Assembly: GCA_000004985.1 (NCBI GenBank)
Contig: GG738884.1
Length of the DNA stretch: 64,000 nucleotides
Source: Naegleria gruberi
Taxonomy: Eukaryota
Strand: one strand, 5' to 3'
This document shows, piece after piece, positions 28,590 to 37,890 of the stretch. The position numbers and the translations under genes are program-made. The notes under the pieces were generated by a model. That model had not been told where the DNA came from, made no database searches, and saw only the letters and a list, made by a program, of their open reading frames with translations. Within the stretch, counting starts at the first letter, position 1. Each line of letters begins with the position of its first letter.

Positions 28590-31500
28590 ATGATCCGAAC
28601 TCAAAAAAAAACACAAAAGATGACAGGCCAGCAGGTCTGTATTGGAAGAAGTCTTTCCTCTGAAGGCTACTTGATGTTGTTGACATTGATGGTAGCTATA
28701 GTTTGTCTCTCTCAAATCTCTTCAGTTTCTGGAATTACATTCTACGCCAGTATCGATTGTGGTCCTCATGGAAATTGTAGTGGCTACGCATGCCAATGTG
28801 AAAGTGGTTATATTGGCCCTCATTGTGAATATCAATGTAATGATACGGAATGTAATGGTCATGGAAAGTGCAACCCATCTTATAGTGGTTCATATGGTAG
28901 TAGTTTTTGTAAGTTTCACACATGTGCTTTTTTACAATAATATAATTACATGCGTAATTTGTTCTTTTTTTACAATAATATGATTACATATATGTAATTT
29001 GTTCATGATACAGGTAATTGTGATAAGGGTTATGGTGGCGTGAATTGTTCACAAAAGTTCGATTGTTCTTCATTGAATAATTGCTCAGCTCATGGTTATT
29101 GTTCCTACGACAATTATTGTACATGTGACTATGAGTGGACTGCTGCCAATTGTTCCCTTCCAATCACTTGTAATAAGGTCAATAATTGCTCAGGTCATGG
29201 TTATTGTTCTGGTTATCAAGCTTGTAGTTGCTCTCAAGGATGGACTGGTGCTGATTGTAATTCCGTTTACAATTGTTCACTTCTTAATAATTGCAATGGA
29301 AGAGGTATTTGTTCTGCTGATAATTATTGCTATTGTAATTCCCAAAGTGGTTATTATGGTGTCGATTGTACTACACCATACAATTGTTCAGCTTTGAATA
29401 ATTGTTCAAGTCATGGTGTCTGTACAAATAACGACTATTGTACTTGTAGTGCTGGTTATTATGGAACTAATTGTTCATTGAAATATGAGTGTGTATCCAA
29501 TGATGAATGTGGATTTCCAAATGGTAATTGTATGATGGGCTCTTGTTCTTGTGTTTTTGGTTGGGGAGGTGAAAAATGTCAAAAGATGATTTGTCCAAAC
29601 AATTGTAATAATCATGGCAATTGTTCTTCACCTGGTTCCTGTACTTGTGATAATGGATGGCTTGGTTCTGAATGTTCTTACTCATGTTCTGGTATTGGAG
29701 GTTGTGGTATTAATGGATATTGTGCCAATAATAATTCCTGCGTTTGTTATCCAGGTTGGCAAGGTGTCAATTGTAATATTGCAAAATCTCCAAATTGTAC
29801 TGCTTTTAATAATTGTTCAGGAAATGGTGATTGCATAAGTAGTTATGGAGGAGATGATTACTGCTCATGCTACCAAACTTATTATGGAGACAAGTGTGAT
29901 CTCAAGTACAATTGTAGCTCTTTAAATAATTGCTCAGGTCATGGTGTCTGTACAAATATCAACTATTGTACATGTGAAGCTGGTTTTGGTGGAAAGGACT
30001 GTTCTTCAAAGCCAAACTGTACTTCTTTGAATAACTGCAGTGGTCATGGCGTGTGTACTTATGATGACTATTGTATTTGTAATCTTAATTATGGAAATGC
30101 TGATTGCTCAGTTTACAATCCTCCAATTTGTCCAAATAATTGCTCTGGTAATGGTACATGCAATCAATATAGCTCTTGTGATTGTAAGGAAGGATATTGG
30201 GGATATGATTGCACAATTACTTGTCCAAAAACAAAGAATTGTAACAGTCATGGTTTTTGTTATGCTCAAGACCAATGCTCTTGTAATGTTGGTTGGATGG
30301 GAGAAGATTGCTCAGTTCCAGAACCAAATTGCAATGCTGTTAAGAATTGTTCCTATCATGGTGTTTGTATAGAAAACAATGTTTGTGCATGCTATACTGG
30401 TTATGATGGTTTAACTTGTGCTGACTATTCATGTAGAAACGTTTCAAATTGTAATGGGCATGGCTCATGCGTTGGGGTTGATACTTGCCAGTGTAAGAGT
30501 GGTTGGAGAGGAAACTCAGATTGTTCTGCCTTCTCTTGTGAAGCTGTTAATAATTGTACTGGATTGGGAAGCTGCATTGGTCAAAATCAATGTTCAGGAA
30601 ATCCATCAATCAAGTGTTATGGAGTTGTTTCAACCAGTGGTTCTGTATGTAGTGGTAAGGGTACTTGTGTTGGAACTGATAGTTGTCAATGTGTTAGTGG
30701 AGCTTTTGGATCTAATTGTAATTCATTTGCTAGAATTCCATCTAGCCAATTGGTTATTAACTCTGTCAATTTCGAGTCTGTCATTTCAATTCCAGTAACT
30801 TTGACTGGTCCAAGTACCTACACATTCAAATGGAAACAAGTTGGTGGATCTCCTTCATTGCAACTCTCTACAATTGCTGTGGGAGGTATTGTCAATGGAC
30901 CTGGTTTGTACATTAACGCAAATTCTGAAACATTCAACAATGGAATGGTTGCTGGTGAAACTTACACCTTCCAAGTTAATATTACTAGAGCTGATGGATA
31001 CTCTACCGTTTTGGAATCAAGCGTTCAAGTTGGTTTGAGTCCAGTGTTGAAAGCCACAATAGTCAATCCATCTGATAACTCACAAACTGGTGTTGCTGTT
31101 ACTACCAAATTTACTGCTACTATTCAAGAATCCTATGATCCAAATGATTCTGAAGCTACATTAATGTACGGATATGGTTTCTACACTGAAAGTGGTTTGA
31201 AGGTTGTCTCTGTTTATTCTTCATCCAAGCAAACTAATTTAACGCTCCCATATCAAACTGGTGGCTCCGTTACTGCCTTTGTATACGTCATCAATGCACA
31301 AACTGGTAATCAAAAGGAACTCAAGTTCTCAATGAATGTTTCAAATCCAACAAGTGGAAAGTCAGCCTCAGAAGTCAATTCATTTGTTCAAAATCTTGTT
31401 ACTTCAGATGCTTCGGTTTCTCAATTGTCCATAGCTGTTCAATTGTTGACCACCTCACCATCCAGTGATCCAACTGTTGTTCAACAACGTACCGATATCA

Positions 31501-32447
31501 AGCAACAAGTTATTACAACTCTCGTTTCTAAACCAGTAACAACTAGTGCTGAAAGAGACACTTTGTTGACAGTTCTTGTTTCAACTACTCAATCAGCCAA
31601 CGAAGTATCAACTACATCAGTTACAAAGACTTTGGATTTCTTAGTTTCCCAACCATCATTGGCTCAAAACTTCAATCCATCCCAACTTGGTCAACTTGCC
31701 TCTCAAATTTTGTCAACAGCTGTTTTTAATTCGACCAGTATCTCAACTTCCACCACAAGTAAACAAGTTAGAACCATCATCGATGCTGCCATGACTGCCA
31801 CAGCCTCAAACTTGGCTGCTGGACAAAGTGCTGTCAAGACATTTGGTAACATTGTTGCTGTCGTTTCAAGTAATACTCTTGATAATTTACAACCAACAAT
31901 CCCAACTAATTCAATTAGCTCAGTGGGTATTAAATCAATTTCTCTCCCAACTGCTAGTTTACAAAGTTTATTCACCAACTCTGGTCTTCCATCAAGCACT
32001 TTAGTTTCCTTATCACTTTCAACGGCTCCACTCTCAATGTACTCCTTCACTCAAACTAAACTAGCCTCAACTCTTGCCAGAATCGCCTTAATTAATTCCA
32101 ACAGTGCCTCTGCTATAGCTGTTGCCAATTTGACATTACCAATTGAATTCAATCTCCAACTTGGTGGTCCTGTAGAAAATGGAAAGACACCAAAATGCAA
32201 ATACTTTAACGAAGTTTCTAATTCCTTCACCACTGATGGCATTGAAACTATTGTCATCTCTTCAAGTGAAATCAAGTGTAGAGTTACTCACTTGACTGAT
32301 TTTGCAATTGTTCCAGAAACAAGTGGAACACCAACAAGTTCTGGTTCAGTGGTCAAGCCAAAGGATACTATTTCAGAAGGAAGTTCAGTTTCTGCAACTC
32401 TTGTTACATTATTAGTTGCTATTTTCTCAATGTTTTTCATGTTTTAA
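28590..32447 (+). CDS. large cell-surface protein: signal peptide, about 18 tandem tenascin/EGF-like Cys repeats, a Ser/Thr-rich stalk, a GPS (GAIN-type autoproteolysis) motif and a C-terminal hydrophobic anchor
   Basis: Exons 28590..28908 and 29014..32447. The intron 28909..29013 runs GTAAGT...ATACAG (phase 1). A repeat unit of about 36 aa, C.S.LNNCSGHG.C...YC.C..G..G.DC, recurs from about 28740 to 30720. The GPS consensus KCKYFNEVSNSFTTDGIETIVISSSEIKCRVTHLTDFAIV sits at about 32195-32315. The C-terminus is VSATLVTLLVAIFSMFFMF. Confidence 0.7.
28925..29010. repeat. tandem ~42-bp duplication inside intron 1 of the EGF-repeat gene
   Basis: ttttttacaataatataattacatgcgtaatttgttc is followed by tttttttacaataatatgattacatatatgtaatttgttc. 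Confidence 0.4.
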
Positions 32448-32553
32448 AACATTCACTTATAAATAAAAATATAATAAATTGTAATAACATTATTTGAACT
32501 GCGAACAAGTTTACAATTAAATTAGGAACTTGAAAAAAATCAATCAAAAAAAA

Positions 32554-33595
32554 ATGCAGCAAGCAATTTCGCACGATTTGATAACAGCAGAAAGTAGAGG
32601 AGTGATTTTGGATGTCAATGAAACATCCTCTCCCTCACAAATTACAATTCAAGATGATTCCAATGATTATACTAAAATTGATTTGAAAATTGAAACCAAG
32701 TCCGATAGTCAATTAGTTCGTTTTGTAGTTTTATCGGATACTCATAGATGTCAGGGTATTTACGACTATTGGTATGATGAGAAAAATAGAAGAGATAGTT
32801 TGGATTCCATTGAGGAAAAAGAGAATAGAGAATTTATCAAATTACCGAAAGGAGATTATTTGTTACATTGTGGAGATTTTACAAATTATTGTTTACCGAG
32901 TAGGTTTGAAAAGTTTTTAGTGGAATTCTCACACAAAAAGATGAATTGAGTGAATTTAATACATTTCTTGGAAAAATTAAACATCGTTACAAACAAATTA
33001 TTGTAATTCCTGGAAATGTAAGTGAATGCTGAAATATTTTGATATTTACAATTTGACTATTTAAACAGCATGAATTTGTAGGTATTTTTGAAAAATTAAA
33101 ATGTTTAGATGACTCTATTAGTGTGCTGATATGTGTTCTTTATTTTTGTACAATGCAACTGTATTGTTGAATGATTTTTTAGAGCTAGAAGATGGGAAGA
33201 TTACAATATTTGGATCAAGATTTAAATCATTTTGGATGAATTGGAAAATGACTGGATATGACTCTGACGCACAAAGTGACTGGTCAACTCTGACAAAACC
33301 AGTTCTCAAAGGTGAAAAAAAAGTTGACATTCTCATGACTCATCAACCACCTTATTTCAAGGAAATTTCAAATAGATTTTTCAGACGTGGAAGTAAATCT
33401 CTTAGAGAGGCCATAGAAACTGTCAAGCCAACCATAAACTTGTTCGGCCACAATCACGATATTTATGGAGTAAAGTATTCGTCAGATTATGATTTGAAAA
33501 ATCAAATTGACACAACCTTTATAAGTGCTTGCTCTTTGGATTCCCATGAAAACGCAAGAAAAGTAATAGTATTCGATTATCCAATAAATAAATAA
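32554..33595 (+). CDS. MPPED1/2-like metallophosphoesterase (calcineurin-like phosphoesterase), four exons including a putative 9-nt micro-exon
   Basis: Exons 32554..32899, 32941..33017, 33069..33077 (CATGAATTT) and 33122..33595. Intron 1 is 32900..32940 (GTAGGT...CAAAAAG). Intron 2 is 33018..33068 (GTAAGT...AAACAG). Intron 3 is 33078..33121 (GTAGGT...TATTAG). The MPP motifs are VVLSDTH, HCGDFTNY, IVIPGNHEF, ILMTHQPP and GHNHD. An alternative model for the third junction uses a weak GTGTGC donor at 33121 and an acceptor at 33182. Both models stay in frame. Confidence 0.6.
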
Positions 33596-33619: not shown

Positions 33620-35687
33620 TTAATCAAATAATCCAGAACTTCCTATCAAAGCTGGGGTTGAAGGAGAAAGTGGTTCCTCTACAACTGTACTGTCCATAGT
33701 TTTCTTTTCCTTTTCATATTCTGATTGAGAAATAATGACTCTAACAAGTTCAACATAACCATCTCCATTATTAGAATCAGGAGTACCTTCTTGTTTAACT
33801 CCTTCATTGTAAGAATAAGCTGCATGAGTAACATAGTGAACTCCATAGTTATTTTGAGGTGTACATTCACCACCACCAAAACCACCTCCTCCACCACCTT
33901 AATTGTCCAATAACACAAATAAAAATTGAAAATAATTGTTAAACTATAAAATTGAAAATGATGCTTACCTTCATACAAGCTACCACCTCCACCACCAAAA
34001 CCACCATTAGCTCCACAAGCATTACTGAAAGTTCCACCTTCACCACCATTCTTGAAACTCTTTCCACCAACACATTGATCGCCAGCACCTCCATCAATAA
34101 ACAAACCACCACCGCCACCGCCTCTGTCACCTTTAGCTGCCTTTTGACTTCTTGCTTCGGCTGGTCCTTTCGTATACACTTGTCCTCCCTTAATTAATGT
34201 TAATTTAAAAAACTCATTCCAAAATCATCATCTACTTACTGGTGATTGAACAGTCCAACTATACCAGTTGGCACCGTTACCTCCACCTCCAATAATAAGA
34301 GGCTTCATAGTATCACTATCAACAACAAAAGTACCACCACCACCTAATTGACCAACTTTTAACAAATCAAAATTGAAAATAATACTTACCACCTCCAGCG
34401 CCACATGAACTACCATTTGTACAGTCGCCACCAACTTGACCTACAAGAATGCTCAATTCTCTGCCTCTCTTCAAGTGAAAGACACCACTGACAATAGCTC
34501 CATATCCTTCTCTGAAAGTTGTAGTATATGTATTTTTACCACCTCTTGCACCAGCTGCAGTAATTTTGTAAAATCCAGTTGCTGGAACAACCCATTTTTG
34601 AATACCATTCTCCAATTTAACCTTATTCTTTAAGAATTTACAACTATCATATTGTGAGCCAATAACTGTTGGTCCGTTTTTGCCTGTAGCACCCAAGTTT
34701 GTAAACTTGATTGACATTCCTTTTGGAAGAAAGTCATATAATACACAATCTCTTTCACGAAAATTCTTATCTTCCTTATTCTCAATCATTGCAGGATTCA
34801 AATTGAATCTCATGGCTTCATAAAGCTTTGGGAAAATGACATCTCTCTTGGAAACCAAAAGTGGATGGGAATCAACTGTCGCCAAGACCTCTCCTTCAAC
34901 AATTGGGAATCTGATTTCACCCAAGAAATAGTCCAAATATTGCAATCTATTTTCCTTATCGTGCTCAATCCATCTCATCAAGGACTTGAATAAATTTCCT
35001 TCACTGCAAATGAGTTCCTTTCCAGCAAGCATGATCTTCAAGTCTTCAATTGGTAATTTAACAAAATGTTGACTTTCACAAACAGTATCAAAATCAGCAG
35101 AAATCTTAGTAAGAAGAGTCTTCTTTAAAGAGTTGATTTCTTTAAATTCTTCTAGGTATTGTGAGCAATTTTCCAAAAGAAGGAATGAAGAATCAGCATC
35201 AACAGCAGCATTTCTCATAATTTCAAGAGTCATCTCCTCAATTTCTTGCATTCCATAGGTATGAGCAAAAGTATACAAATCAATAAATTTATCCATTGTA
35301 TAATCTTTTGTGCAACCAAAATACACAACCTTTAAGAAAATTTCCAATCCAAGATCAGTCACCTGTGGCAACACAAGCTCCTTGCCAATCTCGAATTCTG
35401 GAACAAAAAGAAGTTCCTTGAGTTTTGTACTCCATTTTCCTACCTATGAACCATCATGATGTTCGGATCACACAATTAATATTACAATAACATACCAATG
35501 CTCTAAGAGCAGGAAATCTCTTTCCATTCTTACTGATCAATACGCAATCAGAAGCCTCTTCATCCAAATACAAGGATGAAATCATCGACAAGGTTTTTTC
35601 TGTACATTCAATGTAGGCCTCCTCGTCAATGGCTGTCTTTTGCACAGCACCACCACCACTAGAAGAAGAGCTAGATAATGACAACAT
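33620..35687 (-). CDS. BTB/POZ-BACK protein fused to a glycine-rich (ALK/LTK GlyR-like, Pfam Gly_rich-like) C-terminal region; five exons, 619 aa
   Basis: Exons on the minus strand are 35687..35496, 35443..34390, 34355..34240, 34188..33969 and 33897..33620. The introns are 35495..35444 (52 nt, GTATGT...TTCATAG), 34389..34356 (34 nt, GTAAGT...TTAAAAG), 34239..34189 (51 nt, GTAAGT...ATTAAG) and 33968..33898 (71 nt, GTAAGC...AATTAAG). The exon lengths sum to 1860 nt, which is 620 codons. The BTB domain is DCVLISKNGKRFPALRAL|VGKWSTKLKELLFVPEF...LEIFLKVVYFG. The BACK domain is LFKSLMRWIEHDKENRLQYLDYFLGEIRFP. Poly-Gly blocks are ACGANGGFGGGGG and GGGGGFGGGECT. Confidence 0.65.
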
Positions 35688-35964: not shown

Positions 35965-36531
35965 ATGGGAAATAGTCAACTAAGAGAACCAAAAAGAACC
36001 GCTCACACTATTGTTGAAGAAGATTTACAAGTGGTATTGAAAGAACAGAATATTATTGAACCACATAACTATTCGAATCAAAACTATTATGACAGTGATT
36101 CAGAAGAATCAAGTTTGTCAACCTGTGGTTCCAACTATGAATATGTTGATCTTTCAGAATTTTGGAATCTTCCTACTGAAATTCAACTTTACACAATGAC
36201 ATTTCTTCCATTGAACAATTTTTCTCGAATTATTCGGGTGTCCAAATCACTTTCCAAAAACTTATTGGAATACAATGAATTATTTACCATATACTATTTG
36301 AATGATTTCAGACCAAGAGCGATTCAAGAAAGAAAATCCTGGGTTTCTTATAGCTGGCGAGATGATCCCCCAGAAAATGACTCTGCTCTCTTTCACCTTC
36401 CTCAATCAATTGATTCTTCTCAGTATTTTCAATCTTTAGGATTTTATGGAACTTTGAAAATTATTGTGGTTGAACATGTTAATGAGAGGAAAAGGAGACG
36501 AAAGCGGGCTAACATGCCACAACCAATGTAA
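35965..36531 (+). CDS. F-box-like protein (188 aa) with an N-terminal MGxxxS myristoylation-like motif
   Basis: ATG at 35965 (MGNSQL...). WNLPTEIQLYTMTFLPLNNFSRIIRVSKSLSK fits the F-box consensus. The C-terminus is basic (KRRRKR). Confidence 0.45.
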   Translation: MGNSQLREPKRTAHTIVEEDLQVVLKEQNIIEPHNYSNQNYYDSDSEESSLSTCGSNYEYVDLSEFWNLPTEIQLYTMTFLPLNNFSRIIRVSKSLSKNLLEYNELFTIYYLNDFRPRAIQERKSWVSYSWRDDPPENDSALFHLPQSIDSSQYFQSLGFYGTLKIIVVEHVNERKRRRKRANMPQPM

Positions 36532-36626: not shown

Positions 36627-37890
36627 TCATGATATTGAGAAGAGTTGGTTTCTAAAATGATCCGCATTGAGAAAGAAGGACAATGTGTTGGAAAAATCAG
36701 AGAATGTACAATGATTATTCAAAGTTTCAAGTAAACAAGTTGGTGTTGGTCTTTTGTTCGATTTTTGAATTAACATTTGAGGAAGAATTTCATGCAAGAG
36801 ACAACTTTTCATTTCCTTATCCACAGAGCTCATATTAGAATTAATAATTCCATCTTGTTGAGCTTGTTGCAAGTGTTGTTGCACTTGAGATGGATCTTCC
36901 AAGCCGTCAAGTCTCTTTTGATGTAAAAGTTCAAGAATGACCAATCCTAGAGAGTAAATATCAGATCTTGGAGAAATAATGAGGGAATTAATTCTTTCTT
37001 GTTGAAAGTGAAAGGCTGTCACTTCCTTCAATAGAAATGACAGGTGTTGCATAATTCAACTTTTGGAATGTGACTTGCTTAGATGAGGATGTTTTCAAAA
37101 TTTGGCTTCTAGTTGTCAATTTGAAAGTATGACTTCCAGCATTTATACTGTCATAGGTGATTGACAGTTTGCTTGAATTATTGTTTGGAAGTGTCATCAT
37201 GTTGGAAGATACAATTTCCCATTTATAGGAAATTTGTTTTCCATCTGTGGAATAACTTTCACTTGCATCCAATAGAATATTTTCACAACTTGAATATGGA
37301 GGTCTATATCCTCTAGAAAATCTTTCACATCTCAATTTACCATTGTTGCAATCGAAGTATTTTCCACGTTTCAGTTTGAATGACTTTGACAGTTCATAAT
37401 CTATAAGAAACCAATGTCCATCATATAGGACAATATTATCTGGTTTGATATCATTGTGTGTAATATTTCCTCTTTCCAATAATACAAGTGTGCCAAGTAA
37501 ATCTTTCACAAATTGAAAAATGTCAACTTGGTCAACTTGCCCATTTCTTAACATTGTTCCCAAACATGTTCCTTTCAGTGTGAAGCAATAATCTGGATTA
37601 TCACTAGGTAAATATAAACTCAAAATTGATTTTACTCCTTCATGTTGCTTCACTCTTTTGACAATACAGTCCACATTATTAATTTTGCATGATAGAAGAG
37701 ATTTACCTCTCGATTCATAAAACACGTTGTAATCCATTACTTTGTATGTGATATTGTAAATATTTGCAACAGTAGGAAAGTTGCGAATTGTTACTTCTTG
37801 CAGTTTCTTCTTGTTTATGTTTCCCAACATTCGATCTTCATTGCACTCAACCATGTCCAACTCCAGCACTGAATCCAAAGATCGTTTCAT
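36627..37890 (-). CDS. protein kinase (possibly atypical); at least two exons with the junction unresolved
   Basis: ORF 36988..37890 has ATG at 37890, a VAIK-like CIVKRVK, HEGVKSIL, the catalytic loop GNITHNDIKPDNIVL and an unusual LIDYELS in place of DFG. ORF 36627..37052 in another frame carries subdomain IX SDIYSLGLVILELL. A frame-compatible but weak-signal splice is a donor GTCACA at about 37096 joined to an acceptor at about 37026. Confidence 0.55.

Follow-up and report, generated by a model that had tools for sequence, protein, structure and literature searches.

ALK and LTK, which are of medical interest in neuroblastoma and ALK-driven cancers, bind a protein ligand through their TG domain, and work on this domain has so far dealt with its ligand-binding role in these two vertebrate receptors. 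To our knowledge, the only role of the TG fold established by experiment is that of a domain by which a metazoan receptor binds its cytokine. KLHL and KBTBD proteins, the cullin-3 (Cul3) adaptors, instead carry an intracellular BTB-BACK module at the N-terminus, followed by a Kelch propeller. Here we describe a gene that joins the BTB-BACK module to a TG domain. NAEGRDRAFT_70448 lies on the minus strand at positions 33620-35687 of a 64,000-nt stretch of Naegleria gruberi DNA (contig GG738884.1; the whole stretch is called the window below). It encodes a protein of 615 amino acids in which a BTB and a BACK domain (together residues 41-252) precede an ALK/LTK-type TG domain, also termed glycine-rich domain (GRD). 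Naegleria thus offers a second context for this domain. BACK and the start of the ALK-like domain are encoded by one exon in N. gruberi and in N. fowleri and, because they share a single exon in both species, the fusion is real. The database label of the protein is “predicted protein” only. The three domains map to the window as follows.

35216-35567, minus strand: BTB/POZ domain, residues 41-140; the span includes intron 1.
34880-35140, minus strand: BACK domain, residues 166-252; Pfam PF07707 with 59.9 bits, matching KLHL3 (4hxi) and KBTBD2.
33737-34723, minus strand: ALK/LTK-type TG domain, residues ~305-577; the span includes introns 2-4.

Pfam hidden Markov models (HMMs) detect all three domains above their cutoffs. 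BTB scores 23.4 bits (cutoff 20.5) and ALK_LTK_GRD (PF12810) passes narrowly with 24.6 bits against a cutoff of 24.5; in orthologues and paralogues PF12810 reaches 27-47 bits. The precomputed annotation of NAEGRDRAFT_70448 holds BACK only, probably because the BTB and PF12810 scores are borderline. The glycine-poor residues 310-406 match human ALK and LTK with E values of ~1e-12 (ALK: 43 bits, bias 0.1), and by these alignments the homology to ALK is independent of glycine content. A family profile was made from a seven-sequence alignment (five BTB-BACK-GRD proteins, one B-box and one Kelch-BTB relative) and searched against PDB sequences. It returned ALK (4e-29), LTK (1.7e-24), KBTBD2 (4e-13) and KLHL3 (2e-12), with further matches to KLHL11, KEAP1, SPOP and gigaxonin. 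No Kelch family matched at E ≤ 1 in Pfam, and the TG domain fills the corresponding region; a kinase, an EGF or any further domain was likewise not found in the Pfam scan of NAEGRDRAFT_70448. A preliminary description of this locus, made from the DNA letters alone, had read the gene as an N-terminal BTB-BACK pair lacking Kelch repeats, with a C-terminal resemblance to the glycine-rich domain of ALK/LTK. The Pfam and PDB profile matches bear out the first part, and the second holds even for the glycine-poor residues 310-406.

We calculated a single-chain AlphaFold2 model from a 48-sequence alignment (mean pLDDT 78.6). The C-terminal TG domain is predicted with pLDDT values mostly above 90 and BACK with 78-94, and both termini as well as a linker (residues 291-305) are disordered in the model. 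Residues 435-556, which are devoid of regular DSSP structure at a pLDDT mostly above 87, lie between strands at 308-434 and 557-577. In the model, this layout is the pattern expected of a β-sandwich with an inserted polyglycine subdomain. A Foldseek comparison with the LTK TG domain gave an E value of 1.3e-17 and a TM score of 0.75, and the model superimposes on human ALK over 249 residues with 35% identity, residues 435-556 included. The predicted C-terminal structure hence recovers an ALK/LTK-type fold. What we say of ALK topology rests on PDB entry titles, on PMC13243192 and on general knowledge. Fourteen polyproline II (PPII) segments are tabulated for ALK (PMC13243192); assuming an offset of 647 between 7n00 and ALK numbering, Naegleria residues would, by the HMMER alignments, lie opposite at least 12 of the 14, and polyglycine-II helices, which the preliminary description had suspected, are supported only indirectly in the predicted fold. 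The solved structures nearest to the BTB-BACK half are KBTBD2, KLHL3 and KLHL11; Cul3-bound adaptors rank first among the matches that span the whole N-terminal half.

NAEGRDRAFT_70448 probably acts as a dimeric substrate receptor of the BTB-BACK type: it would serve a cullin-RING ligase, expected to contain Cul3, and would bind targets through its TG domain. The BTB domain would homodimerize, BTB and the first BACK helices would dock on the cullin (expected to be Cul3), and the TG domain, standing in the place of the Kelch propeller, would bind a target protein and present it for ubiquitination. We infer dimerization, cullin binding, target binding and ubiquitination from the KLHL/KBTBD-like N-terminus together with the protein-binding role of the TG domain in ALK/LTK, from the presence of TG domains in phage tail-fiber and virion proteins, and from their repeated attachment to E3 ubiquitin ligase scaffolds. 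The nine cullin-family genes of Naegleria genomes (PMC9928731) argue in the same direction.

Several observations weigh against a role as a cullin adaptor. The φ-x-E loop (BTB α3-β4), which contacts Cul3, is canonical in the N. gruberi paralogue NAEGRDRAFT_80637 (GEFIESS) and in Willaertia (GEFMESN), but degenerate in NAEGRDRAFT_70448 (VPEFEIGKE) and in its N. fowleri and N. lovaniensis orthologues (GSDFTPG). HMMER alignment to KBTBD2 places F-E-I at the motif, so that the glutamate is lost, whereas MAFFT places E-F-E, keeping the glutamate and losing the hydrophobic residue; the two orthologues have F-T-P at this position, the paralogue F-I-E-S and Willaertia F-M-E-S. The BTB domain scores 23 bits in NAEGRDRAFT_70448 versus 49-60 in relatives, the orthologue group being the weakest, and it is modeled with only modest confidence (pLDDT 52-82). 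In addition, many BTB proteins are not cullin adaptors. The degenerate loop and the weakest BTB scores make a cullin-independent scaffold a serious rival, if in our judgment an unlikely one: BTB-BACK would di- or oligomerize and the TG domain would bind a partner with no cullin recruited, the protein possibly serving as a structural or regulatory dimer, as a decoy or as a heterodimer partner of the canonical NAEGRDRAFT_80637. Against such a scaffold speak the well conserved BACK domain, the combination of BTB and BACK that is the signature of KLHL/KBTBD Cul3 adaptors (and whose best matches are Cul3-bound), and the repeated joining of the GRD to bona fide E3 scaffolds such as TRIM. The cullin-adaptor function accordingly stays the one we prefer.

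Hydropathy of the full sequence reveals neither a signal peptide nor a transmembrane segment: the N-terminus is not hydrophobic, and across 19-residue stretches Kyte-Doolittle values peak at 1.3. The 615-residue protein thus appears to be soluble and intracellular. An extracellular protein or adhesin, its TG domain binding something outside the cell, would be in keeping with the secreted or surface location of most homologous domains (in bacterial proteins with PF18962 secretion tails, FN3, LamG or Ig domains, in coral EGF proteins and in phage virion proteins), but is very improbable here, as a hydrophobic segment is lacking, BTB-BACK is an intracellular module and the disulfide cysteine pair is missing. 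The first ALK disulfide cysteine (FTTCG) is a leucine in NAEGRDRAFT_70448. We surveyed this FTxCG position in 260 near-full-length GRDs from the collected proteins, 242 of them non-E3 and 18 E3-linked. The cysteine is kept in 106/242 non-E3 domains, 61 of these 106 having a partner cysteine 13 residues on, and in none of the 18 E3-linked domains. The substitution would be consistent with a reducing compartment and is not diagnostic of one. We dropped it as an intracellular marker, since EGF-linked, presumably secreted proteins of corals and Lingula also have leucine.

A gene-model artefact, by which a BTB-BACK gene and a neighboring glycine-rich gene were wrongly spliced together, is less probable still. 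Three of the four introns do fall within the glycine-rich half; the uninterrupted exon at 35443-34390, however, spans BACK and ~110 residues of the ALK-like domain, as its counterpart does in N. fowleri, independent annotations yield colinear full-length proteins in three Naegleria species and in Willaertia, and the ALK alignment runs on unbroken through exons 3-5. The preliminary description had itself named glycine-rich exons belonging to a separate gene as an outcome that would undo the fusion, and this is contradicted by the continuous exon 2. A glycine-rich part of fold-less low complexity, resembling ALK in composition only, finds an argument in the PF12810 score barely over its cutoff and in the weak, highly biased score of the glycine-rich stretch by itself, but it is the least credible alternative and we judge it already refuted by the match of glycine-poor residues 310-406, by the family profile and by the superposition on ALK. 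Taken together, these observations leave practically no room for a gene-fusion artefact, simple low complexity or an extracellular role.

To place the domain architecture among its relatives, we scanned 1.84 billion cluster representatives exhaustively with HMMER, which gave 3573 hits at E ≤ 1e-3 and 1082 at E ≤ 1e-10. The matches listed consistently align to the unit at residues ~305-577. Among the best 150 of the 3573 matches, four proteins and three fragments also cover the BTB-BACK half, in agreement with the earlier view that BTB-BACK joined to a Gly_rich domain is an unusual architecture. The handful of relatives with this coverage comprises the N. gruberi paralogue, Willaertia magna proteins, two environmental sequences and fragments. 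A word-index search for homologues of residues 1-306 by themselves yielded one 180-residue fragment and no BTB-BACK relatives. Orthologues are present in N. fowleri (FDP41_001968) and N. lovaniensis (C9374_009261), and Willaertia magna has three BTB-BACK-GRD homologues (ABK040_008843, ABK040_002022 and ABK040_008508). The two orthologues, ABK040_008843, ABK040_002022 and the paralogue NAEGRDRAFT_80637 form a Heterolobosean set that is BTB-BACK-GRD throughout, with 39-53% identity over the full length. The paralogue has 46% identity; its accession is ~70 entries from that of NAEGRDRAFT_70448, it comes from a contig of 363,092 bp, a length equal to that of the NAEGRDRAFT_70448 scaffold, and it is not located within the 64-kb window. 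In the alignment, ABK040_008508 (475 residues) is missing ~100 central residues of the glycine-rich domain; either its gene model wrongly omits glycine-rich exons, or the copy has decayed. The searchable literature yielded no account of an ALK-type glycine-rich domain joined to BTB-BACK or TRIM, which is not proof that none has been published.

The GRD also occurs behind other E3 scaffolds. It follows a BTB domain without BACK in ‘Eukaryota sp. GEM-RC1’ and ‘TZLM1-RC’ (both unclassified eukaryotes in the NCBI taxonomy, which we take to be Skoliomonas metamonads), a Kelch-BTB combination in environmental eukaryotic contigs, a B-box in N. lovaniensis C9374_003952 and Willaertia ABK040_000449, and a RING-B-box (TRIM) module in Branchiostoma and in one environmental contig. 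The domain also has relatives in bacterial proteins that bear secretion tails, in EGF proteins of corals, in giant proteins made of many repeats, and in proteins of phage virions and giant viruses. By pairwise identity, the Heterolobosean BTB-BACK and B-box GRDs are mutual nearest relatives (70% identity between the two types in Willaertia), those of the Branchiostoma TRIM proteins fall in with other GRDs from Branchiostoma and Lingula, and the BTB-only and Kelch-BTB GRDs cluster together and beyond that have mixed neighbors. A single ancestral clade of E3-linked GRDs was rejected, as the Heterolobosean and Branchiostoma domains are nearest to those of their own lineage, a comparison based on identity rather than on phylogeny. 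Because the GRDs are most similar to own-lineage GRDs, the comparison suggests that fusions to E3 scaffolds arose at least twice, Heterolobosea and Branchiostoma being the groups that could be judged.

Two observations concern the annotation of these relatives. A Pelomyxa schiedti protein (936 residues, named VPS34) combines a PI3/PI4-kinase, a TRAF-type zinc finger and ALK_LTK_GRD in its precomputed Pfam annotation, and may represent a further intracellular context of the GRD or a merged gene model. Many GRD-only proteins bear the automatic UniProt/UniRef name ‘receptor protein-tyrosine kinase’, among them Naegleria BTB-BACK and B-box proteins and phage virion proteins. No kinase domain was present in any of the GRD proteins of this name that we scanned, and the name is a rule-based mis-annotation.

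The gene model consists of five exons and four GT..AG introns without an in-frame stop, and an in-frame stop precedes the ATG. The spliced product equals XP_002674458.1 / EFC41714.1 / NAEGRDRAFT_70448 / UniProt D2VNC6 in every residue, which marks the window as nuclear DNA of N. gruberi. The open spliced frame bears out the five-exon minus-strand gene proposed before, from the ATG at 35687 to the TAA at 33622-33620, with two corrections to its introns given below.

35496-35687, minus strand: exon 1, residues 1-64, a low-complexity Ser/Gly N-terminus and the start of BTB; ATG at 35687-35685.
35444-35495, minus strand: intron 1, 52 nt, GTATGT...CATAG, phase 0; the site, after ...RAL, is kept in N. 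fowleri.
34390-35443, minus strand: exon 2, 1054 nt, residues 65-415, the remaining BTB, the whole BACK, the linker and ~110 residues of the ALK-like domain.
34344-34389, minus strand: intron 2, 46 nt, GTAAGT...CAATTAG, phase 1; the preliminary description ended it at 34356 (34 nt, ...AAAAG).
34240-34343, minus strand: exon 3, 104 nt (GGGGTFVVDS...WTVQSP).
34189-34239, minus strand: intron 3, 51 nt, GTAAGT...TTAAG; the N. fowleri counterpart lies ~12 codons upstream.
33969-34188, minus strand: exon 4, 220 nt (GGQVYTKG...GGFGGGGGSLYE).
33898-33968, minus strand: intron 4, 71 nt, GTAAGC...TTAAG; the site is kept in N. fowleri; an internal repeat is related to intron 2.
33620-33897, minus strand: exon 5, 278 nt (GGGGGGFGGGECT...GYVELVRV and a 38-residue tail); TAA stop at 33622-33620.

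Exon 2 is one open frame (open reading frame, ORF, 34367-35374). The 38-residue C-terminal tail is non-conserved, missing in Willaertia and of low pLDDT. N. gruberi and N. fowleri have three of the four N. gruberi intron sites in common, the fourth having moved by ~12 codons, and the N. fowleri orthologue carries one additional intron, inside BTB. The N. gruberi genome has a G+C content of 33% and 1.7 exons per gene (PMC8296547); the G+C content of the whole window (~33-35%) agrees with this value, and with five exons NAEGRDRAFT_70448 is intron-rich for its species.

The boundary of intron 2 differs from that first proposed. An acceptor 12 nt further downstream, giving 46 nt in place of the supposed 34 nt, reproduces the deposited 615-residue protein exactly, whereas the junctions of the preliminary description yield 619 residues. 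The 34-nt acceptor would insert VGQL into the GAGGGGGGTFV motif, and such an insert is found in none of six aligned homologues (N. fowleri, three Willaertia BTB-BACK proteins, Willaertia B-box and an environmental Kelch-BTB protein), nor in N. lovaniensis; the homologous phase-1 intron of N. fowleri likewise keeps these six glycines. In the alignment, the 12 nt in dispute (TTGGTCAATTAG) have their counterpart at the 3′ end of intron 4 (TTGGACAATTAAG), and intron 2 taken as 46 nt aligns over nearly its full length with the 3′ part of intron 4 (local score 25; 2000 shuffles gave a mean of 11.1 and a maximum of 19). Because the annotated model, the homologues without an insert and the homology to intron 4 are three independent lines, intron 2 most probably comprises 46 nt (34389-34344). 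Both acceptors are in frame, and some minor splicing at the 34-nt acceptor is possible. The intron range accordingly becomes 46-71 nt rather than 34-71 nt. The four AAG-type acceptors reported before reduce to two, since introns 1 and 2 end in TAG and introns 3 and 4 in AAG; even the earlier model itself gives three. Of the glycine-rich peptides listed there, ACGANGGFGGGGG and GGGGGFGGGECT are present, and LGGGGTF, which depends on the 34-nt junction, is probably not made.

Introns 2 and 4 (34344-34389 and 33898-33968, minus strand) share ATTATTTTCAATTTT-ATTTGT and TTGG-CAATTA-G, intron 4 repeats the TTTTCAATTTT motif internally, and a glycine run GGTGGTGG follows both introns. The likeness suggests an intron duplication or a gene conversion inside the gene. 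The N. fowleri introns at the two matching sites show no likeness by eye.

The neighboring genes were also inspected. A calcineurin-like metallophosphoesterase lies convergently on the plus strand (32530-33595), its stop at 33593-33595 being exactly 24 bp from that of NAEGRDRAFT_70448, as had been noted for an MPPED-like neighbor. It comprises at least two ORFs (32530-32949 and 33131-33595), each a partial Metallophos match, and presumably contains an intron; the 3′ transcript ends of the two convergent genes may overlap. On the other side, a plus-strand ORF of 188 codons (35965-36531) starts 278 bp from the ATG of NAEGRDRAFT_70448, both sharing a divergent promoter region. It begins with MGNSQ, an N-myristoylation-like start, and contains an F-box-like stretch by eye (LPTEIQLYTMTFLPLNNF), with no Pfam match at E ≤ 0.01. 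A plus-strand open frame of 1135 residues (29040-32447), probably a large surface protein, abounds in cysteine-spaced NCSGHG(V/Y)C repeats that look EGF-like; after them come a Ser/Thr-rich region and a C-terminal tail of hydrophobic residues (LVTLLVAIFSMFFMF). Two adjoining minus-strand ORFs (36627-37890) correspond to the N- and C-terminal halves of a protein kinase domain, the upstream one also having a K319L-like PKD match, and probably form one spliced kinase gene.

The gene was already deposited and its domains are found by standard HMMs, so that the architecture, though under-described, does not amount to a new kind of system; a scaffold with an interchangeable recognition domain is well known, both in its components and as a design principle. 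What the locus adds is a cytosolic version of the TG domain, conserved in Naegleria and Willaertia on an E3-adaptor scaffold at 35% identity to human ALK. As it is conserved in these amoebae too, the fold is a binding module of general use and not one confined to animals, and attachment to BTB, Kelch-BTB and TRIM in separate lineages argues for target recognition by TG domains in E3 ligases. The protein provides a tractable system for asking what TG domains bind, and our analysis corrects the recurrent receptor kinase name of kinase-less proteins. One may speculate, with considerable doubt, that the TG fold began as a widely mobile recognition module, which eukaryotes took up again and again to select the targets of ubiquitin ligases inside the cell, ALK/LTK being one extracellular co-option of this older module. 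The scaffolds would then be BTB-BACK in Heterolobosea, BTB or Kelch-BTB in other protists and TRIM in amphioxus. Naegleria is a bacterivorous amoeba and also a giant-virus host, and under this speculation its TG domain could recognize microbial or viral structures, as SPRY-TRIM restriction factors do.

Comparison with described systems delineates what NAEGRDRAFT_70448 shares with each. The human ALK/LTK TG domain (7nx3, 7lrz, 7n00, 7nx1; PF12810) is a TNF-like β-sandwich with an inserted glycine-rich subdomain, as in the Naegleria model. Unlike ALK/LTK, NAEGRDRAFT_70448 is intracellular and lacks a signal peptide, an EGF-like module, a transmembrane helix and a kinase; it has a leucine where ALK has its first disulfide cysteine, and ALK has an extra insert of ~25 residues. 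No ALKAL-type ligand is known outside vertebrates (PMC7851593), and the partner of the Naegleria TG domain must therefore differ. The glycine-rich domains of phage tail fibers and virions (the cyanophage Pam3 fiber 7ypx; phage and giant-virus models from BFVD) belong to extracellular virion proteins without BTB-BACK; the four best viral models have 27-34% identity, and kinship is distant for the others (16-20%) and for 7ypx (19%). With the KLHL/KBTBD adaptors (KLHL3 4hxi, KLHL11 4ap2, KBTBD2 8h33, vaccinia A55 6i2m) NAEGRDRAFT_70448 shares the BTB-then-BACK N-terminus, in sequence and fold, and a putative target-binding domain C-terminal to BACK after a short linker; it differs from them in having a TG domain instead of the Kelch propeller and in its degenerate φ-x-E loop. 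SPOP (MATH-BTB), whose BTB domain is a detectable homologue, carries its MATH domain at the N-terminus, and its recognition fold is unrelated to the TG fold. The likeness to SPOP and to the TRIM-MATH ligase TRIM37 is one of analogy: both place a β-sandwich recognition domain on a ligase scaffold, BTB in SPOP and RING-B-box in TRIM37, as the GRD is placed on these two kinds of scaffold.

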